A stretch of 64,000 bases of DNA from Thermoproteota archaeon (GTDB lineage: Archaea; Korarchaeota; Korarchaeia; Korarchaeales; Korarchaeaceae). Below, piece by piece: positions 13,601 through 62,629 of the stretch. Made by a program: the position numbers and the translations under genes. A model generated the notes under the pieces. That model did no database searches, was not told where the DNA came from, and saw nothing but the letters and a program-made list of their open reading frames with translations. The DNA lies in the NCBI GenBank assembly GCA_027492205.1, contig JAOZFN010000011.1, forward strand, positions 32,001-96,000, given 5' to 3'. Every line of letters starts with the position of its first letter. Within the stretch, counting starts at the first letter, position 1.

Positions 13601-13918
13601 TGACTCCAGCTGCTGAGTCCACTCCGGCATGATGGGCCCGTCGAACTGCACTATCACCCTGGCCCTGTCCCCTGGGTACAGCGCCCTTATCCCTTCGATG
13701 TCAGGCTCTCCCGGGGAGAGGGTGCCGCTCGGCAGCTTGAGGACTGCCTCGGGCTGGGGTCCCGCCCAACCGCCAAACTGGATTTCAAAGTCCTTTGGAT
13801 GAATTAGCTGGACCTGTGGACTTCCTGTGAACTTTGGGGCCGCTGCAACAGGTATTCTGAGGACTGTTAGGAAGACGACGAGTATCCCGAACAGCAGGGT
13901 TCTGTGGATCCTCTTCAA
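10655..13918 (-). CDS. S8 subtilisin-like serine protease (Kp43-like) with Asp-rich repeat insertion and C-terminal anchor
   Basis: Signal peptide and propeptide; catalytic GDTG, HGTHV, AAGN, FSSRGP..DGRIKPD, GTSMATP; C-terminal LAWSD...NNVE domain; VGG-TM-RRRR tail. Confidence 0.93.
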   Translation of the reverse strand: MKRIHRTLLFGILVVFLTVLRIPVAAAPKFTGSPQVQLIHPKDFEIQFGGWAGPQPEAVLKLPSGTLSPGEPDIEGIRALYPGDRARVIVQFDGPIMPEWTQQLESMGAVVETYIPDNALLITVPSDLVSELLSVEHVRRIGPFRPEYKMTQRTAQRLSASTGPVMMLVKGFAADSPEDLRRAVESLGGRVVRELPMNGAFVVLPADRAGDLASSAYVLSMDLVEPKAPVAPVQIQGEAAPPANAQPENYWAGQVTGSYWINLLWGITGAGVTVAVGDTGLDTGDTAGVDDDGDGLVDEDPVEPGCWINNDGDYLINEDDPDDDGDGLVDEDPVNGLDDDWDGYVDEDPVAGLDEDGDGLVDEDPIDGADNDGDGYVDEDPAGIDNDWDGLIDEDPVETAPPCADNDGDGLINEDPAGIDNDGDGLINEDPYDDDMDGRLNEDPPNYGDNDGDTLVDEDGMSDDAACGLLDLDGDGFWYMDDDDGDGLYDEELPNGIDDDGDGLVDEDVPGCDNDGDGYFDEDPAPGEDDDGDGLVDEDPIPWHDYFGTGLPFFTGDDDNDGSFDEDPVDGIDNDGDGLVDEDPAGIDNDGDGLVDEDTEIWPDFVGKVRALIDATEWWEYTGDGSAEDFWFHGTHVSESALGLGTSMWGKYGGAGAMYYWPPIPGVAPGADLAMVRFFGDTGYPYAWDVNYNYIDEWAAYAIAHRATGSIITSNSWGYPSEGEYSLYEAYWDLFVKGGEDWDGDGTPEPPITCVFAAGNAGPDPTVSLDGPGIAKNVIQVGATTNPPFFAPYQFADFSSRGPTADGRIKPDVVAPGYYVVGPITGMFMYGRLTPDPVQALHAWAAGTSMATPQVAGAAALWQDLFSFAGTISPSAVKALIVNFADWMGLDPTADSDGNGNPDLYDMGFGQLDFYDILTHPGLLYLCDECVSISTGYVAYLSFEVTDPSTPLEVTLAWSDAPQWVPGVPALVNDFDLYVVAPDGTIYHGNDLVPPYDDEVDRVNNVERVIIDSPEVGRYQIRIYAINTPSEDPSFSLVIFGSGSIGTLDVSAVGGIYQPSSLAAAAAVAAFVSAASAALVVYHRRRR
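12126..13055 (-). repeat. About 18 tandem D-[ND]-D-G-D-G-[LY]-[VI]-[DN]-E-D-P repeats inside the S8 catalytic domain
   Basis: Recurrent + strand unit gtcctcgtccaccagcccgtccccgtcgttgtc; visible directly in the translation. Confidence 0.95.
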
Positions 13919-13976
13919 AACTTTTCACCCGCTGGGCCGAGCCAGCCGGCGTACAATAAAAGTAATTCCGAGCGCA

Positions 13977-14020
13977 GTGTGGATACGTGACCCCCGCCGT
14001 GTGGATACGTGACCCCCGCC
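13977..14020. repeat. Exact 22-bp tandem duplication GTGTGGATACGTGACCCCCGCC x2
   Basis: Copies at 13977-13998 and 13999-14020, upstream of the S8 gene promoter. Confidence 0.9.
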
Positions 14021-14149
14021 CCGTCCACCCCCGCCCCACCCACCCTAAGTACCCCCAGGTGGGGGCCCGGCGCGGAGGCGGCGAAGGGCCGCAGTGGTTC
14101 ACATGGCCACCGCCGCAGCCCTCGGTTGCCGATTCGCCGGTCGGAGGAA

Positions 14150-15778
14150 TCACCTCCTCCTCGAGATCATGGCCCCAAGGGCGGTCCCCAGGGCCGCCGA
14201 GGCGGCGGCGACGGCCAGGGTGAGGGTGTAGGACGGGCCGCCGACCTCCTGCCTCGCCGATCGTGGAGGGGGCTGGGAGGAAGCTTCCTCGGGTGGGTGT
14301 GACAGCGCGGCGTTTGCGGCTGCTATCAGCCGGGAGGCTGACCTGAGCAGGTTAACCTTCTCGGCGGGGGAGTTCGCCTCCTCGTATGCGCGCAGGAGGG
14401 CCCAGATGGCCTCAGACAGCGCCGTGGCGCTTGGGTCTCCCAGAGATCCCAATCTATTGGCCTCGTTCACGATCCACTGGGCAGAGCGGGACATGGCCAG
14501 CTCTGCGAGTTCGTTGGCTCCTTTAACGACCGACTCAAGCAGTTCCTGGGCGCCGGTGCAGTTTCCCGACCGGGCCGCTTGGTCCGCCCGCCCGAGCAGA
14601 CTCTCCAGCCTCGAGAGGTCGTCGAGTCCCTCGCCCGCCCCGGTCAGGTTTGACGCGAGTTCTACCGATGACTTCGCCAAGGTCAGGGCCTCCCACCCCC
14701 TAGAAAGGTCGATGGCTGCGCATGCGTTCGCGCCGCCAGACTCCGCGGCAGCGGAGGCGGCAGTCAGCGTTCTAACCTCCCTCACCTCCAGACCTCGCCT
14801 CCCGGTTACGAGGACCTCCAGCTGCAGGGCCCCGGCGACGTCCTCAGGGACGCGTATTCTCAGGGAGAACTGCCTGCCCAGGCCTGGGGGGATGTCCCCC
14901 AAGTAGGCGGATCCCGCCGCCCTGCCGCCCAGCATTACCCTGACGGTGACGCCCCTCGCGGGAACCCCTCCCGCGTTCCGCACCGTCCCGTTGACCCAGA
15001 CCTCTTGACCGGGCGAGGCCTCCTGGGGGGCGACGACGTACAGATCTAGCATAGCCCTGCTCACGACGCTCACGTCCACCTCAGCTTTTGCGGATCCCTG
15101 AGAGGTGACCAGGACTAGGATAAGGTGGCGGGTCCCCTCGCCGAGCGGAGAGGAGTCGAACCTGACCCCGAGGGTCCTCTCGGAGCCAGCTGGTATGGTG
15201 ATCGCCAGTTCCACGGTGTCCAGGAGCGTCCAATCTTCCAGGTAGATTAGGACCTGCACGTTTTCAGCTGGCCGATCACCCTCATTCAGTACCCTAAGCC
15301 TGACCTCTACAGGCTCACCGAGCGCCGTCTCCCCTACGGTGGCCTCCAGAATCTTGACGTGCGAGACCCGCCCCCCTCCAGCCCACCCCCCTCCACCTCC
15401 ACCTCCGGACTGACTCCTAAGGGTCAGATTCACCTGAACCTTTCCAGTGCCCTCACCTACTTTGATGTACCTCACGGCCGACAGGTCGCCTTTCCTCGCC
15501 GTGACCCTGACGGTCTGCGATCCCTCTATCGAGAGAGTTATCTGGTAATATCCCTGGGGGTTTGTAGTGGCTGATCCGGAATCGCTGTCACACGTGGCCA
15601 AAACGCTCGCGCCGGCAGCTGGAGACCCGTCGGGCATGTGGACGTAGCCGTATATCACGACCGGAACCCCCTGCGCCCTGGCCGGGCTGACGCCCGCAGA
15701 CGAGGCCATCAGAGCTAGGCAGAGTAGGAGCGAGGCCTGAAAGAGTTTCAGAGATCTCTCTCGCCTCACCAGGTTCAT
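14150..15778 (-). CDS. Surface protein with carboxypeptidase-regulatory-like and CARDB/Ig-like domains, helical stalk and C-terminal anchor
   Basis: Start MNLVRR at 15778 overlaps the upstream stop (TGATG); signal peptide; IYGYV..PDG.PA.GA.V; two V.N.G...A..V.V CARDB-like modules; VGG-TM-RRR tail. Confidence 0.8.
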   Translation of the reverse strand: MNLVRRERSLKLFQASLLLCLALMASSAGVSPARAQGVPVVIYGYVHMPDGSPAAGASVLATCDSDSGSATTNPQGYYQITLSIEGSQTVRVTARKGDLSAVRYIKVGEGTGKVQVNLTLRSQSGGGGGGGWAGGGRVSHVKILEATVGETALGEPVEVRLRVLNEGDRPAENVQVLIYLEDWTLLDTVELAITIPAGSERTLGVRFDSSPLGEGTRHLILVLVTSQGSAKAEVDVSVVSRAMLDLYVVAPQEASPGQEVWVNGTVRNAGGVPARGVTVRVMLGGRAAGSAYLGDIPPGLGRQFSLRIRVPEDVAGALQLEVLVTGRRGLEVREVRTLTAASAAAESGGANACAAIDLSRGWEALTLAKSSVELASNLTGAGEGLDDLSRLESLLGRADQAARSGNCTGAQELLESVVKGANELAELAMSRSAQWIVNEANRLGSLGDPSATALSEAIWALLRAYEEANSPAEKVNLLRSASRLIAAANAALSHPPEEASSQPPPRSARQEVGGPSYTLTLAVAAASAALGTALGAMISRRR

Positions 15779-18700
15779 CAAGACCACCCCTCCTTGTCGA
15801 CGGGCTCCTGGCCCTCTACCCACGCCAACGTGGCCGGGGAGTCGAGGAACACGAAGTACCCGTAGCCCCTTAGGACGGGGAAGTCGTACTCGCCGGGACT
15901 CGTGCCCGGCAGGTACGAGTAGTACCTCTTGGCGGCCGGGTCCCACCTGCTGATGACGCTGCAGGCATCGCCTATTGCCATTCCCAGGTCCCTCGCAGTG
16001 AGGCCGCCCCTGGTCGGCTCGGCGACCGAAACTATGGTCCACCCCTCCTGCAGGTGGGTCACGTGCACCCTCAGTGACAGTCGGAGGTTCTTCGAGGCTC
16101 CCTTCACCAGAATCGTGAGTAGGTGCTCTCCCTCCTCGAGCGAGGAGGCGTCCACCTCGATGAACAGGTCCTCCCTCGCCTCGTCCGCGGATCCGTCGAC
16201 CACTTGGAGGGGGGTGACCGGATCTCCGTCTATGCCGTATCGGGCGCCCGAGATTCCGAGGGGGTGAACCGCCGTGAGATTGACTCTTATGGTCCCGTTC
16301 AGCACGTGAGGGTGGTCTGAGAGGACCACAGGCGCGTTTGAATCTCCTCCGAGGGTCCATAGCAGGGAGTTCCTGATCAGGATCTCCCTGTGAGTTGCGT
16401 TCAGGTAGTGGAGCGGGAAGGCGAAGTACACCACCCTCGACCCGTTTCCCCCTATACCGTCGTAGGCCACCGCCGCTGAATAAGCGGTCCCAGAGTACCT
16501 CAGGAACTCGAGTCCGCCCGGCAGGGGTGAGACTCCGTCGGGGAAGGGAGGCGCGACGTTGAAGTCGGAGGAGGATGGAAGATCGAGCGTGAGGGGGTGG
16601 TCGACGGACACCTCCAGGCTGGCTGGCCCCGCGTCATCTACCTGGTATGAGGCGTGCAAGACTTCCCTCATGAGCCCGTCCGAACCGTGGTCGTACGCTA
16701 CGTCTTCCCCCTCAACGACGAGCGAGCCCCCCCTCTTCACGTACTCGATGAGCAGGTTGGCATCGGTCTTGGAGACCGCCTCCCCGTAGTAGGTGCCCGC
16801 GTGCCAGAAGACCGCGACGGCTTCAAGAAGGGTGTCGAGCGTAGGCTCCCCGTACTCGCTCTCCCGGTAGACTACCGCGTTGAATCCCAGAGAGGCTGCG
16901 ACCTGACTTATCTCGTCCGGCCAGACCCCTCCGTCGTACATGCCAGCGCCGTCATCGTCCACAACTATCAGCACCGTGTTCGGCGGGAGCGCCGCCGCGA
17001 AGACCGAGACATCGACCCTGAACTGGTCCCTCACCAGGTAAGTGTCTCTGGATCCGCCCAGGGTGCTGTCCGTCGGGGACACCCTCAGGGAGGCCGCCAT
17101 GGGCGGCGTGGAGGTCAGTGGAATCTCGAAGTACCCGTCCGGGTCGGTGACGGTCTGCGCGACGAGGGAGTTCGCGTCGTACTCGTAGAGCGACACGGTC
17201 GCCCCCGCGACGGGGAGCCCGTTGGAGTCCATCACGCGGCCGAAGAGTTTGGGGCCTGGGGTCGGAGGCGGCGGGGAGCCGGTTGGAGTCAGCTCGATGG
17301 TCGGGTCTCCCAGCAGGGTGCCGTACTCCGCCACGGTCTTCCAGTTGTACTCGTCGGCGACGCCGAAGGTAAGGACGTAACCCCCTATGGCGGACGCGTG
17401 CGCGGCCCCCACCCAGGGTTTGGCCGATCCCACCGCCGAGATCAGTTCCTGGATGAGGAGTCTGTCCATCTTCCCGGCCAGTCCATCGTCTATCGAGAAA
17501 CCCTCGTACCCCCACGCCACCCTCGTGGCCCCGAAGTACCCCACGGCCCCGCCGGGGTTCGTCAGGAACGCCTCCCCAATGGAGTCGACATCCACGAACC
17601 TGGCGGTCATGCAGGCCATCGCCACGACTATGGCCGGCGACTCAGAGTTGTTGAGCGTGGCCGCCAGGGTGGAGGAATAGACGGTCCTGTAGCCGTACAG
17701 CGGTCCGGAGTACCACCCGCTCGGGTTGCCGTGGCCGGCGAAGTTCACGAACCCGTACCCCCTGTTGATCTCGGCCTGAACGGCCGAGGGGGAGAGGTTA
17801 CCCAGGTGGTCGTAGAGCTTGACCCAGCGGAACTGCTCGGGGAGGTCCTCGTACTCGATCACGTCGTTCAGGTACTCCCCCTCGGGGTGCAGGTCGTCGT
17901 CGAACGTCACGGTCCCGATCATGAGGAACCTGTAGAACCAGGAGGCGCCGGGTGAGTAGTTCGCAACCTTCGACACCATCGCCTGGGCTTCCGCGAGGCT
18001 ACTGGCCGGCAGCCTCCCGACAATCACGTCCGGAACCCCGTCTACCTCTCCAACCTCTCCGTACCTCCCATTTCCGTTGGGATCCCACGTCCCGTCAAGG
18101 TCCGCGTAGTATAGGTCCGTCTCCACGAAGGAACCGTCCTCGGACTCGTCGTTGTCGGCGTACCCGTCGGGTATGTAGGCGAGCCTCGCCGGGACCTGAT
18201 CCGCGTCCCCCAAGATGAGGAAGAAGGCGTATCCTTCGGCCTTCTTGTCGGCGATGAACGACCTGATCTCCTCCTGCAGGTCGCTTCCCGTGTAGTTGGC
18301 GTCGATTTCGTCCGTCGTGACGACGAGGACGCCCCAGCCCTGATCCCGCTTGGAGGCGGCCAGGTCGTTCGCCGCGGCCAGGAGGGTCGAGCTCGTAATT
18401 ATCACCAGCCTCCTGTCGTAGGTCTGAGCGGGCACCCTCTGGACCCTGTATGTGACGGTGACCATCATCTCCCTGGCGAACCTCACCTCGCCGAGGGCGG
18501 GCGAGTACCTCACCGGGAAGAGCCTCACTGCCAAGATGGCAGCGTCCCTCATCGTCTCGACGTCCAGCCCGAAGTGAAGCGAGTAGGTGAAGTTCTCCTC
18601 AGGAAGGAACTCCCTCGAGGAGTAGACGGTCGGGTCGGGCTCCGCCCTGTAATTCAGCCTCGTGTCGTTGAGCCAGGGCGGGCCCAGGGGCCTGGGTTTT

Positions 18701-19041
18701 GGACCGGGGGCTATCCTATAATTCCCCTCCAGTACCTCGTACTCCGCCGACACGTTGACTGACTCCAACTCCACACCCGGCGGCAGGGTAAGCGTCACCG
18801 TGACGAAGGGTAGGATGGGATACCCGGGCTTGACCAGCAGGTCGGCCCCGGGTATCGTGATCATATCGTACTTGCCTTCGACTGCCTTGAAGTGAACCTC
18901 TGGCGGGCTTAGAGTTACGAGGACGGACTTAGTCTCGAGCGCCGGCGCGTCTGCTGCCAATGCGGGCGCAGCCGCCGTGACCAAGATCAGCGTCAGGACA
19001 AGGGATGCCGACGGGGCGGGACCTCTAGGGGCCGCTGTCAT
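15778..19041 (-). CDS. C25 family (gingipain-like) cysteine peptidase
   Basis: Signal peptide, C25 propeptide (PGYPILP), LILGD...VP, TDLYYADLD, VGRLP, catalytic NFAGHG and MACMTARF, LLGDP. Confidence 0.9.
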   Translation of the reverse strand: MTAAPRGPAPSASLVLTLILVTAAAPALAADAPALETKSVLVTLSPPEVHFKAVEGKYDMITIPGADLLVKPGYPILPFVTVTLTLPPGVELESVNVSAEYEVLEGNYRIAPGPKPRPLGPPWLNDTRLNYRAEPDPTVYSSREFLPEENFTYSLHFGLDVETMRDAAILAVRLFPVRYSPALGEVRFAREMMVTVTYRVQRVPAQTYDRRLVIITSSTLLAAANDLAASKRDQGWGVLVVTTDEIDANYTGSDLQEEIRSFIADKKAEGYAFFLILGDADQVPARLAYIPDGYADNDESEDGSFVETDLYYADLDGTWDPNGNGRYGEVGEVDGVPDVIVGRLPASSLAEAQAMVSKVANYSPGASWFYRFLMIGTVTFDDDLHPEGEYLNDVIEYEDLPEQFRWVKLYDHLGNLSPSAVQAEINRGYGFVNFAGHGNPSGWYSGPLYGYRTVYSSTLAATLNNSESPAIVVAMACMTARFVDVDSIGEAFLTNPGGAVGYFGATRVAWGYEGFSIDDGLAGKMDRLLIQELISAVGSAKPWVGAAHASAIGGYVLTFGVADEYNWKTVAEYGTLLGDPTIELTPTGSPPPPTPGPKLFGRVMDSNGLPVAGATVSLYEYDANSLVAQTVTDPDGYFEIPLTSTPPMAASLRVSPTDSTLGGSRDTYLVRDQFRVDVSVFAAALPPNTVLIVVDDDGAGMYDGGVWPDEISQVAASLGFNAVVYRESEYGEPTLDTLLEAVAVFWHAGTYYGEAVSKTDANLLIEYVKRGGSLVVEGEDVAYDHGSDGLMREVLHASYQVDDAGPASLEVSVDHPLTLDLPSSSDFNVAPPFPDGVSPLPGGLEFLRYSGTAYSAAVAYDGIGGNGSRVVYFAFPLHYLNATHREILIRNSLLWTLGGDSNAPVVLSDHPHVLNGTIRVNLTAVHPLGISGARYGIDGDPVTPLQVVDGSADEAREDLFIEVDASSLEEGEHLLTILVKGASKNLRLSLRVHVTHLQEGWTIVSVAEPTRGGLTARDLGMAIGDACSVISRWDPAAKRYYSYLPGTSPGEYDFPVLRGYGYFVFLDSPATLAWVEGQEPVDKEGWS

Positions 19042-27272: not shown

Positions 27273-27461
27273 GGCGGTCGCCTTCCGCTGCAAAATACAT
27301 TTTGACAACTAAAAAAGGCTTCTAACATCAAAGCAACTTCCACGTTGTATGCTGGGCATTTGAAGTTAAGTTTTGAATTTACACAGGAACTTTAAGTACC
27401 ACAATTTATCTATATGATCGGTGAAAGTTATGTCAAACTTACGCGAAAGTGGGGGTGCGCA
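27273..27461. promoter_or_regulatory. AT-rich divergent promoter region between the CARF-like regulator and nurA-herA
   Basis: Strongly AT-rich; TTTAAG and TTTATCTATA boxes; inverted repeats CAAAAT-AC-ATTTTG (27291-27304) and AAGTT-N6-AACTT (27425-27440). Confidence 0.6.
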
Positions 27462-28574
27462 TTGGTCAAGGCCGTCAGGCGCCGCGCCGACCAGCTTGGC
27501 CCGCTGGAGCCCTACCTGGGGGAGGCTCCCCTAGAGTACAAGCTGGTACCGTACGAGAGCCTGAGGACTGAACTCGCCACCCAGGCTGTTGAGTACGCCG
27601 CCGAAACCGCGAAGCTCGCCTTAAAGGTTCGGAGGCTCAGGGCCGCCCTGGAGTCCGCCGTCGGGATCCTCCGGGTTGACCCGGTCGACCCCTCTTCCTC
27701 CCTCTTCGGTGCCGCGGACGCCGGCGCCAACGGCCGAGATCTGCTGGTTGGAGTCTACCCCGTGATCACGGCCGTGGGGGCGACCTTCAGAGGCGCCTCC
27801 ATGCTCTTCGGCCCCAAGTCCGCGACGACCAAACTCCCAAGGCTCTACGGGGATGAGGAGGAGGCGAGAAAGCTCTCCACCCTCGTGGGGTACTATCTCC
27901 AGTTCGAGCTGGCCAGGCACATGCTCGAGGAGGCCAGGGACGGGGTCCTGCTCGACGGCCCGTTGATCCTCAGGAGGAGCGTCTACAGTCCGAGGGGTAG
28001 GCACTACGGGGAAACCTACGTCCGGGCCTACTGGTCGGCGTGGAGGTCGCTCGCGCTCCTGCTCGAGGAGGCCAGGGACAGGGGGGTCCCGGTCGTCGGC
28101 GTCGTGAAGCGGGTCCGGTCGACGCAGGTTGCCAGGAGGGTGGGGCTGGACTCGACTGGCGACTCTGCCCTGGCGGCCCTCTGCCTGTCTCCGGGGGAGT
28201 ACACCTCCCCCACGCCGATGGAGTCCGCCTGGGTCGACCTGGTCGGACACCTCAGGGAGGCGGACGTGAGCCCCCGCGGCCTGAGGCCCCACTCCCTGAT
28301 CGTTAGAGCGGGGCAGGGCGGGCAGTCCTACAGGGTGGATGTGCCGGAGTTCGCCCTCGACAGGGTACACGAGATCGTCAGCAGGCTCTACTCACTCCGG
28401 GTCCCGCCCTCAGGTCTACCCGTGCCGATAGTGGCGGTGGACCGCCTTACCCGGGTGACGAACCGCGAGGCCGCCCTGCTCCACCGCCGGATGTTCTCGA
28501 CCCTGGCCTCCAAGCTGGGGGCCGACAGGGTCGACATACTCACCCTGCTGACCCTGCAGCACGGTGAGTCGTGA
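27462..28574 (+). CDS. nurA: NurA-family nuclease
   Basis: AADAG, LLDGPL, VVGVVKR, YRVD, GLP.P...VD motifs; TTG start after GGGGGTG; GTGA overlap with herA. Confidence 0.85.
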   Translation: MVKAVRRRADQLGPLEPYLGEAPLEYKLVPYESLRTELATQAVEYAAETAKLALKVRRLRAALESAVGILRVDPVDPSSSLFGAADAGANGRDLLVGVYPVITAVGATFRGASMLFGPKSATTKLPRLYGDEEEARKLSTLVGYYLQFELARHMLEEARDGVLLDGPLILRRSVYSPRGRHYGETYVRAYWSAWRSLALLLEEARDRGVPVVGVVKRVRSTQVARRVGLDSTGDSALAALCLSPGEYTSPTPMESAWVDLVGHLREADVSPRGLRPHSLIVRAGQGGQSYRVDVPEFALDRVHEIVSRLYSLRVPPSGLPVPIVAVDRLTRVTNREAALLHRRMFSTLASKLGADRVDILTLLTLQHGES

Positions 28575-31273
28575 GGTGCCGCCGATTGGAGGACGCCAGG
28601 ATTGTGGGCTACGTGATGTCGGGGTCGACTCCAACGAGGATAGCGTTCGTCGTTCGAAGAGACAGGAGAGTTGCCGTTGGAAGGTACTACGGGTTTAAAC
28701 ACCCGTTCTTTGGTCCGGACGGGCCCACGGTCTTCGTCCGGGTCTACGAGATCACCGCGATCAACGAGGAGATGGAGTCGGGCAGGGCCGCGGTCCTGGC
28801 ATCCTCCTCCGGGCTCGTCCCGGACTACCCCAGCGAGCTGGAGTACCTTCTCGCTGAGTCGGAGGTGCTCGGGTACAGGGATCCAGCCACGGGGGAGATA
28901 ACGCCCCTAGAGTCTCCCCCGTCCACCATGACGCCGGTGCTGGAGCCGACGGCCGAGGAGCTGGCCCGCTTCGTCGGAGACACCGCCACCGGCGGGACCC
29001 CCGTGAGGGTGGGGGCGATGAGGGGCCTCGGAGCCCCCCTCCACCTGGACCTCGACGCCATCGCCAGGGGGCACATGTTCGTCGCGGGCATGACCAGGTC
29101 GGGTAAGAGCGTATCTGGAGACACTGTAGTGGCGATCTACGACGTTGCAGAGGACAGGATGTGGCTCGGCCCCATCGGGGACTTCTTCGCGGCCATGAGG
29201 GGCAGGGTGGGGGGGGTTAGGTTCTTCACGCTCGCCCTCAACAGGAGGACCCTCCAGCCCGAGTGGGCGCCGGTCAAGGCGGTCTTGGCCCACCCCGCCC
29301 CCAGGAGGATGTACGAGATCGTCACGGAGACCGGTCGGAGGCTGAGGGTGACCGGCGACCACTCCCTCCTTGTGTTCAGGGGCGGCAGGGTAGTCGCCGT
29401 CAGGCCCGAGTCGGTGAGGGTGGGCAGGGACTACGTGATCGTCCCCTGGGGCGGCGGGGAATTGGGCAGGGGGGGGATCGACAGGCCGGAGGCGATGGTG
29501 GCTGGGGTGGTGGCGGCTCAGGGGCTCCCGTGGAGGGGTGGAAGTGAGGTCTTCGTCTTCGGCGTGCCGGAGGACTTCACGCTCTCCCTCGCTTCTCTGG
29601 GGATCGACTGGGCCGAGCTTCGCGATCCTTCGAGCGTTTTAATTAGTGGAGAAGGGATCGTGAGAGTCGCCGCGCGAGAAGGACCGGCCTTTGCCCTCAG
29701 ATTCGATGGCAGAACCGCTAAAGCGGCCATTTACTCCTCTCTGAACTCGATGGGCTCTGCCTGCAACGGAAATGGAAACTTCACGGTGTTCTCAAACTCC
29801 CAGCTGGAGCTCCGGATAGCGTCGATCCTGGCCGGGATAGTCGGGGTCAGGACTGTGGAGCTCGGGGAAGGTTACCTCATCCTGGACTCTAAGGACTTCA
29901 GGATCCTCAAGGAGGACGTCACCGGGAGGCTCAGCGGAGCGGGGGCGCTCACGATCCGAATCCCGCTCGACGGCCCTCGAAAGATCAGGCTCCTGGCAAA
30001 GAAGATCCTCGGCCCGGGAGATCTCGTGGACAAGGAGAGGCTCCTAAGGGCCCAAGAGAAGATTACGAGGCTGCTGGAGAAAGCGGGCAGCTCCAGGGAC
30101 CGGGCCCAGCTCGAGAGGCTCGCCAGGCTCATAGGCAGGATCCTGAACGCCAGGGTCACGTTCGAGAAGGTGGCCGCCGTGATGGAGGTTGACTCGGAGG
30201 AGGAGCTCGTCTACGACCTGAGCGTCGAAAGGCGCGAGAACTTCCTGGCTAACGGCGTCTTCGTCCACAACAGCAGCTTCACGCTGAACCTGATCAGGAG
30301 GGGCATGGAGGTCAACCCCAGCCCAAGGTTCCTGATACTCGACAGGAGGGGGGAGTACGAGGGCCTCGCCGACCTGGGCGGGACCGTGATGGAGTACAGG
30401 GCCTTCCTACCGACGTCGGGCGCCCTCAGGCCGGAGGACGTCGCCCGCAGGGCCGGGCTAGACAGGGGGACCAGGGCGTGGGAGCTGACCGTGATGGCGG
30501 CCGAGGAGGCTGCGGCTGCGGGGGACGCGACCGTGGACGGCATAATCTCGAGGGCTCGAGCCCTGGCCGCCAGGATGGCCCTCAGGGACAGGACGCACCT
30601 CCTCCGCCGCCTCGAGGCGAGGCTCAGGAGGGCCGCCCACGATATAGAGAGGTCCAGGGGGGAGGGCGTCGACGTGGTGAAGGTCCTCAGGGAATTCCCG
30701 GCGGTGGTGGTCGACCTGAGCCTCGACAACCACTACGACGACCAGTTTGTGGCCCTCCGCAGTATGATCAGGAGGCTGGTGTCGCACGCGGTCGGCAGGA
30801 GGAAGGCCGGGGACTTCGCAGCCATAGTGGTGGTGGAGGAGGCCCAGTACCTCGCCCCGGAGAGAGGGTCGCCGGTGGTGGGCGACCCCTACGGCTCCGG
30901 CGTGGCGTCGGCCCTGACCGAGGCCATCAGCCAGGCCGGGGGATACAACCTAGGGTTCGTCGTGGTGACGCAGAGGCCGAGCTACGTGTCCAAGGGGGTC
31001 ATCAGCCAGTGCAACACAGTCGCCGCCTTCAGGCTGCAGAGCGGAAACGACCAAGAGGCTATAGCCAAGTACACCGAGGCGGGCGAGGCAGTGGTCAGGT
31101 TCCTGCCGTCCCTCAGGGACCACGAGGCGGTCGTGTGGGGAATGGCCAGCCCGATCCCATTCCCCGTCCTGGTCAGGGTGGAGGTGGAGGCCTTCCCGTC
31201 AAAGGCCTCGGCGAGGCCCAGCGAGGCCTGGAGGAGGATGGCCAGGGCCCAGGGGGGGCCGGGGCCGAGGTGA
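28571..31273 (+). CDS. herA: HerA-family ATPase/helicase (HAS barrel + RecA-like) containing an intein
   Basis: N-terminal HAS-barrel-like region, H.FVAGMTRSGK|S Walker A, ILDRRGEY, VVEEAQ Walker B, TQRPS, SQCNT. Confidence 0.88.
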   Translation: MRCRRLEDARIVGYVMSGSTPTRIAFVVRRDRRVAVGRYYGFKHPFFGPDGPTVFVRVYEITAINEEMESGRAAVLASSSGLVPDYPSELEYLLAESEVLGYRDPATGEITPLESPPSTMTPVLEPTAEELARFVGDTATGGTPVRVGAMRGLGAPLHLDLDAIARGHMFVAGMTRSGKSVSGDTVVAIYDVAEDRMWLGPIGDFFAAMRGRVGGVRFFTLALNRRTLQPEWAPVKAVLAHPAPRRMYEIVTETGRRLRVTGDHSLLVFRGGRVVAVRPESVRVGRDYVIVPWGGGELGRGGIDRPEAMVAGVVAAQGLPWRGGSEVFVFGVPEDFTLSLASLGIDWAELRDPSSVLISGEGIVRVAAREGPAFALRFDGRTAKAAIYSSLNSMGSACNGNGNFTVFSNSQLELRIASILAGIVGVRTVELGEGYLILDSKDFRILKEDVTGRLSGAGALTIRIPLDGPRKIRLLAKKILGPGDLVDKERLLRAQEKITRLLEKAGSSRDRAQLERLARLIGRILNARVTFEKVAAVMEVDSEEELVYDLSVERRENFLANGVFVHNSSFTLNLIRRGMEVNPSPRFLILDRRGEYEGLADLGGTVMEYRAFLPTSGALRPEDVARRAGLDRGTRAWELTVMAAEEAAAAGDATVDGIISRARALAARMALRDRTHLLRRLEARLRRAAHDIERSRGEGVDVVKVLREFPAVVVDLSLDNHYDDQFVALRSMIRRLVSHAVGRRKAGDFAAIVVVEEAQYLAPERGSPVVGDPYGSGVASALTEAISQAGGYNLGFVVVTQRPSYVSKGVISQCNTVAAFRLQSGNDQEAIAKYTEAGEAVVRFLPSLRDHEAVVWGMASPIPFPVLVRVEVEAFPSKASARPSEAWRRMARAQGGPGPR
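29108..30271 (+). mobile_element. Intein (388 aa) in the HerA Walker A motif with a degenerate LAGLIDADG-like region
   Basis: Starts SVSGDT (block A), has VTGDHSL (block B TxxH), ends VYDLSV...NFLANGVFVHN|S (blocks F/G); removal restores GMTRSGKS. Confidence 0.93.
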
Positions 31274-37813: not shown

Positions 37814-39433
37814 ATGCCGGGCCTCGTCGATCTGATCCTGGAGTGGCTCAGGGGATACCCGGCCGGGTACGAGCGCCTCCTGTCCATGATAGGCATAGAG
37901 GTCCACTGGGCCATACTGCAGTACGTCCTCGGCCTGCCGCTCCTGGCGGTCCTGGCCGAGGCCATTTGGCTGCGGACGGGGAACGAGCACTGGAAGAGGC
38001 TGTCCAGGAACTTGGCCAAGGGCTTCGCGGTGGTCTTCGCGGTTGGCGCCGCCTCCGGCACGGCGTCGGAGTTCGGGCTCATACTGCTATGGCCCAACCT
38101 CACCGAGGCGGCCGGCAGGTACATCTACTTCCCGCTCTACCTAGAGATCTTCGCCTTCATCACGGAGGTCGTCTTCATCTACCTCTACTTCTACGCCGAC
38201 GGCAGGGTCTCCCGCAAGGCGCACCTGCTCATCGGGGTGCTCGCCCTGGCCGGCGCCTGGTTCTCCGGGGCCATGATCTTGAGCGTCAACTCCTTCATGC
38301 AGTCTCCGGCAAACGTCTTGGCTAACTACGACCCGACGACGGGATCCTGGGCGCCGCCGGAGGTGCTCCTCTTCGTCCCCACTCAGGTGGCCCAGGCCAT
38401 CGACGCCCAGAAGCTCGCGTCGGTCGGGGGGAAGATCCTGGAGAGCGGTGCCGACTACGTCTTGGTCTCGCTGCCGGCCGGGCTGGTCAGGGCGCTGATG
38501 GGCCAGGCCTTCGCCGGCTACACCGTCGGCGAGAGCCTGCTCGCGGCGGTCGCGAGACCCGAGGCGGCCCAGGCGCTCGCGTCGGTCCCGCTCAAGAGCG
38601 TCCTCGACTCGATAGTGGCCAACACCGTCAGGCACGCCGGCGTGTACACGATCACCTTCAAGTCCGGGACGTACGTGGCCACCTTCGTGCACTCCATAGG
38701 CGCCGCGGTGACCGTCTCGGCCTTCACGGTCATGGGCGCCTACGCGCTGAGGCTCCTCAGGACTCCCAAGGACGATCCGGACAGGGAGTACTTCAGAGGG
38801 GCATTCAAGTTCGCCGCCGTGGTGGCCCTGGTGGCCGTGGCCATCCAGGGGACCGGTTCCGGCCACGCGATGGGGGCCGCCGTCGCCGAGTTCAATCCCG
38901 AGAAGTTCGCCGCCATGGAGGGGACCAGCGAGCAGATAACGAGCCTGCCGGCCTTGATCCACGCCGAAGGGCTGGTCCACGGGAAGCTCATGCCGCTTCT
39001 GGCTTACGGGAGCACGGGCGCAGTTATCCCGTCCTACGACCTCATCCAGTCCGACTTCAGGCCTCCCCTGGTCGTGCACTACCTCTACTACACCAAGATC
39101 GGGCTGGGGGTCCTCCTCGGACTCGTGGCCCTCCTCGCGGTCGCATACCTCAGGAGGTCCGCCGAACCGCCGGGCTGGGCCCTCAACCTCTCCGCCGCCT
39201 CGCCGGTCCTGGCGCAGGTGGTTAGCTTCCTCGGGTGGGCGGTCAGGGAGATAGGGAGGAAGCCCTGGGCCATCTACGGGATCATGGACGTCCAGACCGA
39301 GCTCACCGTGAACCCGCCGCCGACGTGGCAGCTGATGCTAGTCGCCGCCTACCTAGCCGCCCTGCTGGCGCTCCTGTTCGCCGTGGTCTACGTCTACCTC
39401 TGGAAGAGGGAGGAGAGTGGGGAGGTGAGCTGA
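37814..39433 (+). CDS. cydA: Cytochrome bd quinol oxidase subunit I (CydA)
   Basis: His near N-terminus (VHW), FAVGAASG...EF, E.FAF..E, NSFMQ.P, HSIGAA, PEKFAAMEG, GW..RE.GRKPW. Confidence 0.92.
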   Translation: MPGLVDLILEWLRGYPAGYERLLSMIGIEVHWAILQYVLGLPLLAVLAEAIWLRTGNEHWKRLSRNLAKGFAVVFAVGAASGTASEFGLILLWPNLTEAAGRYIYFPLYLEIFAFITEVVFIYLYFYADGRVSRKAHLLIGVLALAGAWFSGAMILSVNSFMQSPANVLANYDPTTGSWAPPEVLLFVPTQVAQAIDAQKLASVGGKILESGADYVLVSLPAGLVRALMGQAFAGYTVGESLLAAVARPEAAQALASVPLKSVLDSIVANTVRHAGVYTITFKSGTYVATFVHSIGAAVTVSAFTVMGAYALRLLRTPKDDPDREYFRGAFKFAAVVALVAVAIQGTGSGHAMGAAVAEFNPEKFAAMEGTSEQITSLPALIHAEGLVHGKLMPLLAYGSTGAVIPSYDLIQSDFRPPLVVHYLYYTKIGLGVLLGLVALLAVAYLRRSAEPPGWALNLSAASPVLAQVVSFLGWAVREIGRKPWAIYGIMDVQTELTVNPPPTWQLMLVAAYLAALLALLFAVVYVYLWKREESGEVS

Positions 39434-39436
39434 CGC

Positions 39437-40708
39437 ATGCCCGAGCCCGTTCCCATCGTGTTCATCCTATCCCTGGCCTTCGGCCTCCACATCGCCCTCG
39501 TAAACCTGGACATAGGGCTTGCGACGCTCATCCCGATCATGAAGAGGGTCGGGGAGCGCAGGGAGGACGAGTTCCTGGTCAGGAGGGCCAAGAACCTCAT
39601 GAGATACTACGCCATGACGTACGCCGTCGCCGGGGTCTTCGGCACGGCCTTCACCGTCGCCCTGCTCGCCTTCTACCCCGCCTTCATAGGGCTGGCCGGG
39701 CACCTCACCTGGGTGCCCTTCGGCCTCGCAATCCTCCTCATAGCCCTCAGGTTCCTCTCAGTGGCCGGCTACTGGTACCTCTGGGATCGCGTCTCCAGCG
39801 GCATCCACCTGCTCATTGGGGCCGTGATGGCCGCCACCGGCATCCTGATCCCCCTCGGCTTCAGGGCGGTCTTCGCGTTTCTTAACGCCCCGTTCGGCCT
39901 CAGGCTCCAGCCAAAGCCCCACCTAATACTGGGCGAGGCGCTATCGAACCCGACCCTGATGCCGCTCTACCTGAAGAGCGTGTTCGGCGCCCTGTCCACG
40001 GGCCTGTTCGTCGTCGCGTCGGCATACGCCTGGAGGTACCTCCGGACGGAGGGTGAGCTGAGGGAGAGGTACGCCGGTCTGGTGAAGGCTCTGCTGCCGT
40101 ACGGCACGCTCTCCCTGTTCTTGATGCTGGTCTTCGGCTTCTGGTACACGCTAAGCCTACTCTCCGTCTCGCAGTACAAGTTCGTCAACATCTTCGGCAG
40201 GTTCTTGGGCGCGGACCCGACCAAGGACTTCTCGTGGCTCTTCCTGGTGAAGATGGCGCTGGTGGCCGTTCAGTTCGGCGTCGTCCTCTACGTCCTCGAC
40301 AGGCTCCTCAAGGGCTTAGAGCTCGACGACGAGCCCATGCGGTGGATAAAGACGCTGGGGCCGGCCGCCCTGGGCACGGTGATCACGGGAGAGCTGCTCA
40401 ACATGTACAGCCAGCTTCCGTACTTCGTGGCCAGGCCCGACCTCTTCAACATGCTGCCGTCCTGGGTCGTCAGCGCCCTCTCCGTCGATACGGTGAACCC
40501 CCTGGCCAACCTGCCTGGCGTCTACATCATCACGGGCGCGGCGCTGACCCCGCTCCTCGCGGCCGTTGCCGCGCTGATCTACGTCGCGACCAAGGGGGAG
40601 CCCGAGGCTCTCGAAGGGGCAAGTCGGCAGCGGGAAGACATGGCAGCGGGAGGCAGAGAGGGGCAGCCTGAAGTGAGCGGGATGGGCGGCGACGGAGGGT
40701 CCGGGTGA
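39437..40708 (+). CDS. CydA-paralogous second subunit (CydA') of a CydAA'-type bd oxidase
   Basis: CydA-like N-terminus (GLHI..VN, YAVAGVFGT) without the GRQPW motif; directly follows cydA. Confidence 0.8.
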   Translation: MPEPVPIVFILSLAFGLHIALVNLDIGLATLIPIMKRVGERREDEFLVRRAKNLMRYYAMTYAVAGVFGTAFTVALLAFYPAFIGLAGHLTWVPFGLAILLIALRFLSVAGYWYLWDRVSSGIHLLIGAVMAATGILIPLGFRAVFAFLNAPFGLRLQPKPHLILGEALSNPTLMPLYLKSVFGALSTGLFVVASAYAWRYLRTEGELRERYAGLVKALLPYGTLSLFLMLVFGFWYTLSLLSVSQYKFVNIFGRFLGADPTKDFSWLFLVKMALVAVQFGVVLYVLDRLLKGLELDDEPMRWIKTLGPAALGTVITGELLNMYSQLPYFVARPDLFNMLPSWVVSALSVDTVNPLANLPGVYIITGAALTPLLAAVAALIYVATKGEPEALEGASRQREDMAAGGREGQPEVSGMGGDGGSG

Positions 40709-59261: not shown

Positions 59262-60371
59262 TTAGGATCCCACGGCCCTCCTCCACTCGTCGAGCCACCG
59301 CCTGAGGTTGGCCGCCACCTCGTCTGGGGTCAGCACCTCGTTCATAAGCTTGATCTTCGTGGGATCGATGGCGTACTGCGCGTACTCCGGGGGAAGATGG
59401 ACGTTCTCGTTGGCCGGGTACATCCAGTTGTTCAGCGGTATGAGCCTCTGCACCTCGGGGCTGAGGAAATACTCGATGAACTCCTCCGCCAGCTCCCTGT
59501 GCGGGGCCCCCTTGACTAGGCCTATGCCCTCTATCTGGAGCCAGCCCCACTCCTCACCGTTGTAGGTCACCAGCGTCGCCCTGTATCTGGTTTCCTGGTA
59601 GAAGTGATAGGAGTACGCCCCGTCGGTCCCGTAGCTCACCACGATCGGCCTGCCCTGAGCCTCATCCAGGAAGACGTCGTAGGCGTCCCCCCAGCTCCCC
59701 GCGACCAGAAGGCCGTTGTCGATCGCCCGAGTCCACCAGCTCCTCCAGTCCCCGCCGGTCATCTTGTAGTAGGCGATCTGCCAGAGCAGGAAGCCGAGAC
59801 CGGTGCTGCTCACAGTCGGATCCTCGGCCACCAGCCTCGAGGCGTACTCCGGCCTGGCCAAGTCGTCGAACGTGAGTCTGCTCATTTCCTCATCCGAGAT
59901 GCGCTGACTGTCGTACACGAGGGCGATGAGGCCGTAGTCGTAGGGCACGACGTGGTGCGTCGGATCTAGGGAGCTGACCAGCCAGTCGTAGATCTCGTCG
60001 AGGTTGCTCGGGGTGTAGGGCTCGAGCACCCCGGCATCGACGGCCTCGTGCACGAGCACGTTGTCAATCCCTATGATCACGTCCGCCTGCGGGTTGTCCT
60101 TCTCCTGGATCAGGGCCAGCAGCGCGGACCTCGCGTCGTCGAACTCCCTGACCACGACCTCGCAGTTGTACCTGCGCTCGAACTCGCCGTAGACCGCGTC
60201 GAGCGTCGCGTTGGGATCATCCCCCCACTTGAGCAGGCTCTCGTAGGTGTAGATGACCAGCCTCCTCTCGGCCCGAGCCTCGCCGGTCCTCTGCAGGGCC
60301 ACGTACGCTGCGGCAAGCACCACCACCGCCGCAAGGGCTAGGGCCAGGATCCGGCCAGCAGTCCACCTCAC
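59262..60371 (-). CDS. thiB: Thiamine ABC transporter substrate-binding protein (ThiB/TbpA)
   Basis: YTYES, ADV.IGIDN, PYDYG, DP..SSTGL.FL.W, W.DAY..F, SY.TD, QIEG, IP..NWMYP; GTG start at 60371 inferred from the SD. Confidence 0.92.
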   Translation of the reverse strand: MRWTAGRILALALAAVVVLAAAYVALQRTGEARAERRLVIYTYESLLKWGDDPNATLDAVYGEFERRYNCEVVVREFDDARSALLALIQEKDNPQADVIIGIDNVLVHEAVDAGVLEPYTPSNLDEIYDWLVSSLDPTHHVVPYDYGLIALVYDSQRISDEEMSRLTFDDLARPEYASRLVAEDPTVSSTGLGFLLWQIAYYKMTGGDWRSWWTRAIDNGLLVAGSWGDAYDVFLDEAQGRPIVVSYGTDGAYSYHFYQETRYRATLVTYNGEEWGWLQIEGIGLVKGAPHRELAEEFIEYFLSPEVQRLIPLNNWMYPANENVHLPPEYAQYAIDPTKIKLMNEVLTPDEVAANLRRWLDEWRRAVGS

Positions 60372-60430
60372 CACCACACCCCTCCCGGCAGACACCGGAG
60401 GGGCCGCGGGAGTCGGCATAAGGAGGTGCC

Positions 60431-60534
60431 GCGGGCACGCTCCCTACGCCGGCATTACCCGGATCAGGTTCCAGGGGTCGGCGGCGCGCTAGCCGCCCTC
60501 TCAGCCGGGTTGCCCCAGCTCCCCCGGTGCCCGC
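60431..60534 (-). ncRNA. TPP (THI-box) riboswitch
   Basis: Minus strand: GCGGGCAC-CGGGGGAGC...GCUGAGAG...GACCCCUGGAACCUGAUCCGGGUAAUGCCGGCGUAGGGA-GC-GUGCCCGC; conserved UGAGA and CCUGAU...UAAU...CGUAGGGA motifs, perfect 8-bp P1; in the 5' leader of thiBPQ. Confidence 0.95.
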
Positions 60535-60555
60535 CGGGTGGCGAGAAACCCCGGG

Positions 60556-60574
60556 CAGTATAAATCATTTACTG
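60556..60574 (-). promoter_or_regulatory. TATA box of the thiamine operon embedded in an inverted repeat
   Basis: Minus-strand TTTATA (60564-60559) about 25 nt before the riboswitch 5' end; CAGTA-TAAAT-C-ATTTA-CTG dyad. Confidence 0.65.
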
Positions 60575-60697
60575 AAGTCGCCAGGGACGCCCCTTCGTCG
60601 TCTTCCCGTCGGGCTTGACGCTCACGGTTCCCGGCGGACGTAGATCGCTCTTGAGAGGCTGCCACGCCCGTGAGGAGAGCTGTCGGGCCCCCGGATT

Positions 60698-62629
60698 TCA
60701 CCCGTCGGACCCGGTCGGGGGGTCGTAGGTGAGCCCGTCCATCTGGTGACAGCGTGGTATCGGGGAAATCAGGTCGATCACGGTCTCCCGGACGACGTCC
60801 AAGTTATCGAGCGCATACTTCCTCGTCGAAAACCGATCCTCCCCCCACAGCCATATCAGCACCCTCCCGGGGCCGAGATCGTAAATCCCAGGCCCGCCTA
60901 GGGCGCGGGTGAGCGGGCGGAGCAGGTCGCCGAGGTGGGGACTCTCGGGCCCGCCCAACAGGATGAGCACCTTGCTGTCTAGCATGGCCAGCCTCAACCC
61001 CTCCTGGTCCAGCCTGGCCCTGCGGACCTCGACGCCCATTTGACGAATTTCGTCGGCCAGCCGAGTCCCGGTCAGGTTCCAGTCTATGTCGTTCGACAGG
61101 ATCGCCACCTCGATCCCTGGTTCCCGCCACTCAGACCACAGCTCGAGTGCGCCCCGCCGGCTCAGGGCGTGGATCCTCACTTCGCAGCCCCCAGCCGCGG
61201 CTATGGTCTCCATAGCCGCCCGCGCGACTTCCCCATAGACGGGGACCTCGAGTTCCCACGAAGTGCAGCGGATCTCTGCGCCCTCCTTCGCCATGAGGAG
61301 GAACACCCTCCCCCAGGGATCTCTGCCAAAGTCCAGCGTACTGGGCAGCTCCAAGAGGACTCCGTCGTACAGGTCGAGCGCCCAGGCCCCCACCAGGCCC
61401 TCGGGTACCGTGGCCGGGGCCTGCCCCACGGCGACCAATCCGGCGTCGTAGACGCCTATGGCCCAGCGATCCCCGAAGGTCGATCCCCTCCAGCACCCGA
61501 GCCAGTAGAGGTTCGGCAGGTCCTCCAGCTGGACTTCTCCCTCCACCTCGGACGGGGCGTAGGCCGCCCCGTCGTGGCCGAACACCCTGGCCCCGGCAAA
61601 GGAGTAGAAGGCCGCCTCCCTTCCTCCCCTGTCGGGAAGGGCGTAGCTCAGGTGAAAGAACCCCAGCTCGGGGTTGCGTCTCCGGGCCTCCTCGTAGGGT
61701 CGGACGACGAGTTCGGGGACGTACATTGCCGGACTCTCCCACGAGCTCCCGTCCCACGGGAAGAGCACGGTAGCCCCCTGCACGACGTCCGAGTAGTACG
61801 ATTCGCTTATGTCCCAGTCCACGTACTCCATGGGCTCGTGGCCGCACCTGTAGGCCTGATTGGACACGATCACGAGGTCGATCCCCCTCTCCTCGGCCCC
61901 CTCCCTCAGCTCCAGCAGGAACTCCCTCAGCGCCTCCCAGAGCGTCTGGTTTGGGTGCCTCTCCCTGAACGCCTCGACGTACCCCGGCACCTCCGACGCC
62001 CATTCCTCCGAGCACGCCGCCGGGAACCAGTCGAAAAAGACTGCGGAGTACCCGCCGTCGGCCAGCGCGTCCAGCAGATTGAGAACCCGCCTCCTCCGGA
62101 GACCCTCACTGCCGTAGTCGTATGCAAGAGCCCTCCCGTAGGGGCCGTCGAAGCTGACGAGGAAGTCTCCTGGCCTGTAGCCCTCGGCGTCCCACTCGTA
62201 GGCGGCGAATATCCAGTCGTACATCATGAGCCGGACTCCCGCGTCTAGGAGTTCAGACCTCGCCTCCGGGGGGAGTTCGGCGGCCTCCACGATATCCGCC
62301 CTCCTTGCCAGCCTGAGCCTGTCCTCAGTCGGCGGGCCCATGAAGTACAGGCTGATCCTCGCGTTCGGTCTCGGGGCGAGGCCCCCCAGATCAGTCTGGG
62401 AGGGGGAGCCCATCCCGGGGGCCAGGCTGAGGGACGTCGCTCCGGTTCCAATCTCCGATCCACCTGTCCCGGAGCCGTCAGAAGGTAGGGCCTCAGAGTT
62501 GTGGATCTCAGGGCCGGATGAGAGTCCGATCGGGGCTCCATCCCGGCCGACGCGCTTCAATCCCACAGGCAAACTGAGCACGAGCGCCAAGAGGACCACA
62601 GGCGCCACGTCTGAAACTGGCACCCTCAT
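60698..62629 (-). CDS. Secreted glycoside-hydrolase-like (TIM-barrel) protein with C-terminal S-layer/cell-wall-binding-like domain
   Basis: Signal peptide; GYSAVFFDW, IVSNQ, DISES motifs; C-terminal ILSNDID...LLGGPES...WGEDRFST. Confidence 0.6.
   Translation of the reverse strand: MRVPVSDVAPVVLLALVLSLPVGLKRVGRDGAPIGLSSGPEIHNSEALPSDGSGTGGSEIGTGATSLSLAPGMGSPSQTDLGGLAPRPNARISLYFMGPPTEDRLRLARRADIVEAAELPPEARSELLDAGVRLMMYDWIFAAYEWDAEGYRPGDFLVSFDGPYGRALAYDYGSEGLRRRRVLNLLDALADGGYSAVFFDWFPAACSEEWASEVPGYVEAFRERHPNQTLWEALREFLLELREGAEERGIDLVIVSNQAYRCGHEPMEYVDWDISESYYSDVVQGATVLFPWDGSSWESPAMYVPELVVRPYEEARRRNPELGFFHLSYALPDRGGREAAFYSFAGARVFGHDGAAYAPSEVEGEVQLEDLPNLYWLGCWRGSTFGDRWAIGVYDAGLVAVGQAPATVPEGLVGAWALDLYDGVLLELPSTLDFGRDPWGRVFLLMAKEGAEIRCTSWELEVPVYGEVARAAMETIAAAGGCEVRIHALSRRGALELWSEWREPGIEVAILSNDIDWNLTGTRLADEIRQMGVEVRRARLDQEGLRLAMLDSKVLILLGGPESPHLGDLLRPLTRALGGPGIYDLGPGRVLIWLWGEDRFSTRKYALDNLDVVRETVIDLISPIPRCHQMDGLTYDPPTGSDG

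Follow-up and report, generated by a model that had tools for sequence, protein, structure and literature searches.

The leader and its operon

We analysed a 64-kb window (positions 32,001 to 96,000 of contig JAOZFN010000011.1, hereafter C17, in assembly GCA_027492205.1) from a member of the archaeal class Korarchaeia, in which a thiamine pyrophosphate (TPP) riboswitch element lies on the minus strand ahead of an operon resembling thiBPQ. The genome is a metagenome-assembled genome (MAG) of 1.94 Mb in 17 contigs, 96.4% complete with 1.36% contamination. Read along the minus strand from 60570 to 60360, the locus opens with an AT-rich island that holds a TATA-like box and passes into a structured stretch very rich in G+C, followed by a hairpin and a run of GTG codons. 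Searching the whole window with cmscan against Rfam placed RF00059 (TPP) at 60530..60435 on the minus strand, with a score of 62.8 bits against a gathering score of 54.3 (E 5.9e-10, model positions 6-93). This was the sole Rfam family above its gathering score in the window and the only TPP match genome-wide (E 4.3e-12 per genome), which bears out the complete THI-box aptamer that a first-pass annotation, made from the letters of the window, had read at this place. The cmscan alignment contains all helices P1-P5 together with the conserved CUGAGA and ACCUGAUC...GCGUAGGGA cores. The ligand-pocket core (CUGAGA plus CCUGAUCCGGGUAAUGCCGGCGUAGGGA), with its known TPP-contacting nucleotides, is aligned to the consensus at high posterior probability.

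For comparison we used an alignment (A1) of 21 full-length leaders, from which three full-length leaders with a different platform (L004, L011 and L031) and truncated copies were left out. A metagenome scan for leader variants yielded 15 stretches, 6 of them new and all near known ones, which were likewise kept out. The ligand-pocket core does not vary across the 21 leaders, and each of the helices P1-P5 is 98.8-100% paired. In our leader the aptamer has a G+C content of 0.74 and an extended P1 of 8 bp, all Watson-Crick, between the 5' strand GCGGGCAC (60534-60527) and the 3' strand GUGCCCGC (60438-60431). P1 (alignment columns 16-23/117-124) is 100% paired with two pairs altered on both sides, and the P3 extension has one such pair; the remaining aptamer pairs are invariant, hence uninformative either way. 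By its sequence the element is a genuine TPP riboswitch aptamer, and we expect it to bind TPP.

A putative archaeal promoter occupies 60570-60558 on the same strand, with an A-rich element resembling a transcription factor B recognition element (60570-60565) followed by the TATA-like TTTATAC (60564-60558). The TATA-like box sits in an AT-rich island amid DNA of 64% G+C, 23 nt upstream of the P1 5' strand, and the alignment has an AT-rich TATA-like box at equal distance in the leaders of relatives. With the usual spacing of archaeal promoters, the transcript would start at about 60535 ± 2, at the foot of P1. An open reading frame (ORF) at 60501-60701 on this strand (66 amino acids) overlaps both promoter and aptamer, has no family match and was deemed spurious. 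Directly upstream of the riboswitch, also on this strand, lies an ORF of 643 amino acids (60698-62629) for which neither Pfam nor NCBIfam gave a match.

Between the aptamer and the operon the RNA can form a hairpin in which the anti-Shine-Dalgarno arm CCCCUCCGG (60403-60395), a UGUCUG loop (60394-60389) and the 3' arm CCGGGAGGGG (60388-60379) follow one another on the minus strand. The 3' arm carries the Shine-Dalgarno (SD) sequence GGAGG at 60385-60381. The first-pass annotation had described such an SD-burying hairpin ahead of a GTG start; it is present, but its formation requires one bulged G (G60386). The 3' end of the 16S rRNA, GAUCACCUCC, contains CCUCC, which indicates that GGAGG is a true SD sequence in this organism, and GGAGG is found in 21/21 leaders with the start codon 5-10 nt further on. 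Three in-frame GTG codons follow it, at 60377, 60374 and 60371. Alignment with the thiB leaders of relatives assigns the start to the last of them (60371-60369), where the conserved N-terminus M-R/K-W-T/S begins (M-R-W-T-A-G-R-I-L... in our protein), 9 nt after GGAGG. In the leader of the congener G003 a nearby ATG is out of frame and GTG-AGG-TGG is kept. An upstream ATG at 60419 was rejected as the start codon, being part of a conserved RNA strand and, in relatives, often out of frame with the gene. The thiB start is thereby corrected from ATG 60419 to GTG 60371.

The gene that begins there (60371-59262, minus strand) encodes a thiB-like thiamine-binding protein of 369 amino acids with an N-terminal membrane anchor. 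It scores 199.1 bits against the thiamine-binding subfamily TIGR01254 (cut-off 93.4) and 139.6 bits against the thiB equivalog TIGR01276 (cut-off 317). Its best solved relative is 2QRY, the thiamine-binding periplasmic protein TbpA of Escherichia coli (E 1.1e-39); the next solved matches are iron-binding proteins, at E 5.5e-11. The second gene (59231-57657, minus strand) encodes a double-domain ATP-binding cassette (ABC) permease of ThiP-like architecture, with BPD_transp_1 in two stretches, which aligns end to end with ThiP equivalogs yet scores far under their cut-offs (at best 77.4 bits against 788). An ABC ATPase (ABC_tran, 130.6 bits) occupies the ThiQ position at 57708-56674 on the same strand; its start is uncertain and its ORF overlaps the permease by 52 nt. 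It reaches 172.6 bits with the ThiQ equivalog, short of the 245 required, and scores higher against other ATPase families. The name thiBPQ given in the first-pass annotation is thus fair at family level, where the ThiB-like protein passes TIGR01254, and not at equivalog level, where the ThiB, ThiP and ThiQ cut-offs are all missed. Thiamine is the likely substrate because of the similarity to ThiB together with the riboswitch.

Neither ThiC nor a ThiN domain nor an NCS1 permease was found in this 96.4% complete genome. ThiR-type control of thiamine genes employs a regulator with a ThiN-like domain; the search for that domain (PF10120), which came up empty here, was positive as a control in five named genomes including four archaea. 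As ThiC, the ThiN domain and the NCS1 permease are all missing from the assembly, uptake through this operon is probably the source of thiamine, and the organism probably depends on it.

Expression platform and proposed switch

The 21 leaders share one order of parts without exception: aptamer, P1 3' strand, an optional small hairpin, CUCCUUAUGCYGRC, a variable spacer, the hairpin CCCCUCCRG-N6-CYGGAGGG and, 5-10 nt on, the start codon. The closed-aptamer structure, comprising P1-P5 and the sequestor hairpin, has 98.0% of its alignment cells paired, compared with 42-59% when the partners are slid against each other. Within it the sequestor helix (columns 154-161/168-175) is 91.7% paired and has one pair altered on both sides (160/169: AU 7, GU 4, GC 3, other 7), so that the SD-masking hairpin of the first-pass annotation proves to be conserved with a compensatory change. 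No oligo-U terminator was found between aptamer and start codon, the longest run of T being 2 in 21/21 leaders, and an intrinsic terminator is therefore not available. Together with the conserved SD-masking hairpin, this makes translational control by SD sequestration the best reading. We favour a translational OFF switch resembling that of E. coli thiM, which would shut down translation of thiB, thiP and thiQ when TPP is plentiful, and give it a probability of about 0.7. That access to the SD limits translation in this organism, and the direction of regulation, we infer from the arrangement of the leader.

How the SD would be freed is a separate matter, and two further conserved strands bear on it. 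The first, CUCCUUAUGCCG (60425-60414, minus strand), is complementary to the aptamer 3' half CGGCGUAGGGAG (60451-60440), which comprises the P5 3' strand, the P4 3' strand and the junction. This anti-aptamer helix has 12 bp in the minimum free energy (MFE) structure of our leader and 14 bp in most relatives, and pairing over its 14 column pairs reaches 94.6%, a figure that drops to 39-56% once the partners are slid. The rejected ATG at 60419 lies within CUCCUUAUGCCG, and its conservation is explained by its being part of that strand.

The first-pass annotation had wired this region differently. There the 3' strand of P1, once opened, folds as the small hairpin GUGCC-CGC-GGCAC, and CACCUCCU (60428-60421, minus strand) pairs with GGAGGGG as an anti-SD sequence or is withheld from it, the local hairpin remaining constant. 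The elements do exist: the small hairpin is present at 60438-60426 on the minus strand and is kept in the leaders that have the insert (pairs 118-121/125-128), and CACCUCC, having the very sequence of the 16S 3' end, could in principle bind the SD. However, the SD already has a conserved local partner that shows compensatory change, and CUCCUU runs on into a conserved AUGCYGRC, which finds no complement around the SD and is fully complementary to the aptamer CGGCGUAGGGAG. Seven leaders without the GGCAC insert nevertheless keep CUCCUU. That wiring also leaves unexplained why the loop of the hairpin should be a copy of the P1 3' strand and covary with the 5' strand of P1. We consider it quite unlikely. 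CACCUCCU is better described as the start of a conserved strand of 12-14 nt that pairs with the aptamer 3' half than as an anti-SD sequence, and GUGCC/GGCAC forms only the tip of the anti-aptamer helix rather than the alternative fold itself. Of the ligand-dependent SD sequestration that the first-pass annotation proposed, the aptamer, the conserved SD-masking hairpin and the lack of a terminator stand, and the alternative pairing is revised.

The second strand is the 5' side of P1 and P2 (60534-60521), of which the P1 5' strand is the beginning. It can pair over a long range with 60401-60388, which covers the anti-SD arm and the hairpin loop. In the alignment this ON helix comprises 17 column pairs and is 94.4% paired, with two pairs altered on both sides: 17/167 (CG 13, AU 7, UG 1) and 22/162 (AU 13, GC 8). 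In every leader type the loop segment with its flanks is a near copy of that leader's own P1 3' strand. In G008, column 22 is a G, which makes a Watson-Crick G-C pair with the loop and only a G-U wobble with the P1 3' strand, a pattern that a model without the long-range helix does not explain. RNAalifold, given the alignment and no structure, returned the ON helix (13-23/161-171 and 25-29/155-159), the anti-aptamer helix (104-114/131-141) and P3 with its extension, and its ligand-free consensus leaves the SD free. The best reading is that the SD-freeing element is the P1/P2 5' strand, which is complementary to the anti-SD arm and loop and covaries with the loop.

On this basis we propose the following sequence of events. 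Transcription from the TATA-like box at 60564-60558 would begin the mRNA at about 60535, at the foot of P1. With TPP, the aptamer (60534-60431) would fold and P1 (GCGGGCAC/GUGCCCGC) would close; the downstream hairpin CCCCUCCGG/CCGGGAGGGG could then form and bury GGAGG (60385-60381), turning expression OFF. Without TPP, two swaps would occur. In one, CUCCUUAUGCCG (60425-60414) would take the aptamer 3' half (60451-60440), removing P4, P5 and the P1 3' strand. In the other, the freed P1/P2 5' strand (60534-60521) would pair with the anti-SD arm and loop (60401-60388). After both swaps the SD would be single-stranded and open to the 30S subunit, the ON state.

Energy modelling of our own leader was equivocal. 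The bare ON and OFF skeletons came to -67.9 and -67.2 kcal/mol at 37°C and to -24.2 and -20.8 kcal/mol at 75°C. For all the energy models given here, nearest-neighbour parameters are weak at such temperatures, and co-transcriptional folding is ignored. Over the 21 leaders at 75°C, forcing the aptamer gave a mean probability of an unpaired SD of 0.13; the figure rose to 0.43 for the free RNA and to 0.85 when the ON helix was forced. When the 3' context was extended, SD accessibility in our leader, free versus aptamer forced, was 0.44 versus 0.21 at 70°C and 0.66 versus 0.22 at 85°C. The aptamer-forced MFE structure of our leader also paired the released CACCUCC with the start-codon region; we dropped this pairing, which on reading the sequences of relatives is not conserved.

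Several results weigh against the proposed switch. The unconstrained MFE structure of our leader retains the SD hairpin at 37, 60 and 75°C and shows the ON helix only at 85°C. When the 3' boundary was short, SD accessibility at 75°C was 0.16 free and 0.15 with the aptamer forced, and the probability of the ON helix was 0.02. Among all leaders at 75°C, only 9/21 had an ON helix probability of at least 0.5 in the free ensemble, and the aptamer-forced ensemble lay on average 11.3 kcal/mol above the free one, a gap left for ligand binding, tertiary contacts or co-transcriptional folding to close. The covariation, for its part, comes from few events: the AU/GC switch occurs in seven permease leaders of one genus plus G008, about two events in all. 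The anti-aptamer helix shows no compensatory change whatever, its aptamer side being invariant. Two of five shuffle measures were at chance level, namely pairs altered on both sides (3 against 2.7, reached by 318/500 shuffles) and further pair types (17 against 17.0, 370/500). Finally, pairing is poor at columns 13-15 of the ON helix, which may precede the inferred transcript start.

Since the model predicts a closed SD hairpin in our leader at 37-75°C, with or without the aptamer, the signal could travel by some route other than SD access, the switch acting mainly on the RNA itself, through its stability or through factor-dependent premature termination, with SD masking secondary or absent. 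Archaeal termination and cleavage factors act on untranslated RNA, and an untranslated leader might be open to one of them. Intrinsic termination, however, is unlikely given the absence of an oligo-U tract in all 21 leaders, and the strict conservation of a strong SD at fixed spacing, held in a hairpin and accompanied by a strand able to open that hairpin, is as a translational switch predicts. We regard control mainly at the RNA level as unlikely, and a further point that bears on it, from riboswitch-free relatives, is given below. No RNA data set containing the stretch was found, and the metatranscriptome contigs of three sets offered only a 40-nt piece of aptamer core on contigs of other organisms and two short pieces of low identity within thiB.

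Archaeal host and spread of the leader

The first-pass annotation took the host to be an archaeon and named a bacterial contig as grounds for withdrawing the riboswitch claim. Contig C12 of this genome carries an rRNA operon with matches to LSU_rRNA_archaea (2589.6 bits) and, for a partial copy at the contig end, to SSU_rRNA_archaea (397.6 bits), the archaeal models winning the clan competition in cmscan. RNaseP_arch (99.1 bits) and ribosomal protein L31e were also found. Speaking against an archaeal origin, a whole-genome search for archaeal SSU rRNA gave no match, missing the partial copy, and archaeal signal recognition particle RNA was not found in the whole-genome search. The archaeal 23S rRNA, partial 16S rRNA, RNase P RNA and L31e uphold the archaeal assignment of the host.

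For the locus itself, the same leader and gene recur in two congeners, G001 and G003, and in part in a third, G002, where they stand at a contig end. Across 185,579 species genomes, a pattern derived from the leader matched 22 times, each time in a record with an archaeal MAG title (Candidatus Korarchaeum sp., isolates Kor2 and Kor3, and Thermoproteota, Crenarchaeota or Nitrososphaerota archaeon) and on contigs of up to 267 kb; built from the leader itself, the pattern maps this leader type and not TPP riboswitches generally. These congeners and archaeal-titled records answer the concern about a bacterial contig. An aptamer that is a relic, or a bacterial fragment placed in the wrong bin, and that has no regulatory role in this archaeon might be suspected from a MAG of 17 contigs with 1.36% contamination, in which C17 has no tRNA or rRNA of its own, and from the fact that such aptamers do decay, as the degenerate second copy described below illustrates. 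It is opposed by the shared leader and gene in the congeners and the uniformly archaeal titles of the pattern matches, by a leader that hardly varies among genomes with local G+C anywhere from 46 to 66%, and by the presence in the window of NurA beside an intein-bearing HerA and of a PH0730-like protein. We consider this explanation very improbable; by the sequence evidence the lineage is Korarchaeia and the locus archaeal.

Some other features of the genome and window are recorded here. On C12 the gene for archaeal RNase P RNA (L003:1108-1397) comes immediately after the 23S rRNA gene, in the same orientation. Several ARAGORN tRNA calls are 90-97 nt long (e.g., Gly, Cys, Ile and Phe, on contigs C6, C10, C12 and C16), suggesting introns; a putative tRNA-SeC was called on C4 and a putative tRNA with a 4-letter anticodon on C12. 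In the window, the NurA gene and then a HerA-like ATPase of 900 amino acids split by an intein (Intein_splicing, 73.5 bits) occupy 27414-31273 (plus strand), and a weak match to an RNA polymerase A'' model probably reflects the intein. Three large ORFs at 10655-19041 (minus strand) encode a subtilase S8 (1087 amino acids), a protein with CarboxypepD_reg and CARDB domains (736 amino acids) and a gingipain-like peptidase C25 with a propeptide (1087 amino acids); the latter two overlap (14150-16360 and 15778-19041), so their starts are doubtful. At 37814-40708 (plus strand) two adjacent ORFs match cytochrome bd oxidase subunit I (259 and 76 bits), with no match to a subunit II model.

Within the class, 27/40 genomes including our own have a TPP match at E 0.001 or better, 25 of them above the gathering score, and the high-quality genomes have one in 18/23 cases. 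By genus the matches number 4/4, 17/21 and 3/4 in the same family and 2/2 in a genus of the sister family; three other genera gave 0/5, 0/1 and 0/2. None was found in the 21 archaeal genomes sampled outside the class. The statement of the first-pass annotation that archaeal TPP riboswitches are mainly those of Thermoplasmatales does not fit this lineage. Behind the switch stand genes for a thiB-type binding protein, an NCS1 permease (PF02133) or thiC (PF01964). One genome (G019) has a second TPP match (L076:199-310; 55.2 bits, just above the gathering score) about 1.5 kb upstream of an intact riboswitch. Its 5' half is diverged and no sequestor hairpin follows CUCCUUAUGC, so that it looks like a decaying duplicate of the leader.

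The ThiB family is present in 19/43 genomes of the phylum, including 4/5 of one genus that has no TPP match. For six thiB orthologues from other Korarchaeal genera (L070-L075, in G005, G012, G009, G007, G011 and G008), relaxing the threshold to E 1 still gave no TPP match upstream. An AT-rich TATA-like box stands about 25 nt ahead of each ATG, nearly identical in three of them (TTTTTTCTAATATATAG), and the corresponding riboswitch-free mRNAs seem to lack an SD and probably carry little leader or none. The SD would thus be tied to the switch, which argues against control mainly at the RNA level. A broader proposal, for which we find the chances evenly balanced, is that the Korarchaeia possess a portable, lineage-specific leader with a double strand-swap platform that has been placed before thiB, the NCS1 permease and thiC and that goes with leadered, SD-dependent initiation.

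Relation to known riboswitches and significance

The element resembles the TPP/THI family RF00059 in its score above the gathering threshold, its helices P1-P5 and cores and its place before genes of thiamine transport or biosynthesis. It differs in its host, in the G+C-rich aptamer with an 8-bp, all Watson-Crick P1 and in a probable transcript start at the foot of P1 from a TATA-type promoter. The TPP riboswitch of E. coli thiM is a translational OFF switch based on alternative pairing of the anti-SD sequence. Our leader would share with it an SD paired to its anti-SD in the ligand-bound state, an aptamer strand that takes the anti-SD without ligand and the lack of a terminator. In contrast to thiM, the anti-sequestor is the P1/P2 5' strand, which would reach about 120 nt across the whole aptamer and includes the hairpin loop in its target, and a second competitor strand, CUCCUUAUGCYGRC, would unzip the aptamer 3' half. 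The likeness is one of logic only, as the platforms have no sequence relationship. With the TPP riboswitches known from Thermoplasmatales it shares the aptamer class and an archaeal host.

TPP riboswitches in archaea are already known; it is the platform that is worth testing. The portion of McCown et al. (2017, PMC5473149) available to us counts 79 archaeal riboswitches in Euryarchaeota, six in Crenarchaeota and one each in Korarchaeota and Thaumarchaeota, and does not name the class of the Korarchaeal one. In riboswitch literature on Korarchaeum and Korarchaeota, represented largely by titles and abstract openings, we found nothing on a platform, a regulon or spread in the class. The fluoride riboswitch of Thermococcus kodakarensis presumably regulates translation and is described, in the part of the source available, as the only naturally occurring riboswitch of archaea to have been determined by experiment (Born et al., 2021, PMC8241225). 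Both it and our element are natural archaeal riboswitches; they differ in ligand and aptamer, and the fluoride riboswitch is ON with its ligand where ours is predicted to be OFF.

As the fluoride riboswitch appears from that same partial source (PMC8241225) to be the only one determined, the passing of a signal from an archaeal riboswitch to the archaeal ribosome is largely untested. The leader offers a concrete model for it, with strand coordinates, natural variants that serve as compensatory mutants and an RNA of 180 nt that suffices to test it. Should the broader proposal of a portable double strand-swap leader hold, no earlier natural metabolite riboswitch of archaea would have had its translational mechanism resolved at the sequence level, and hyperthermophile genetics would gain a ready-made thermostable OFF switch. 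For the organism itself, whose genome appears to be without thiamine synthesis genes, a single switch probably governs the supply of an essential cofactor.

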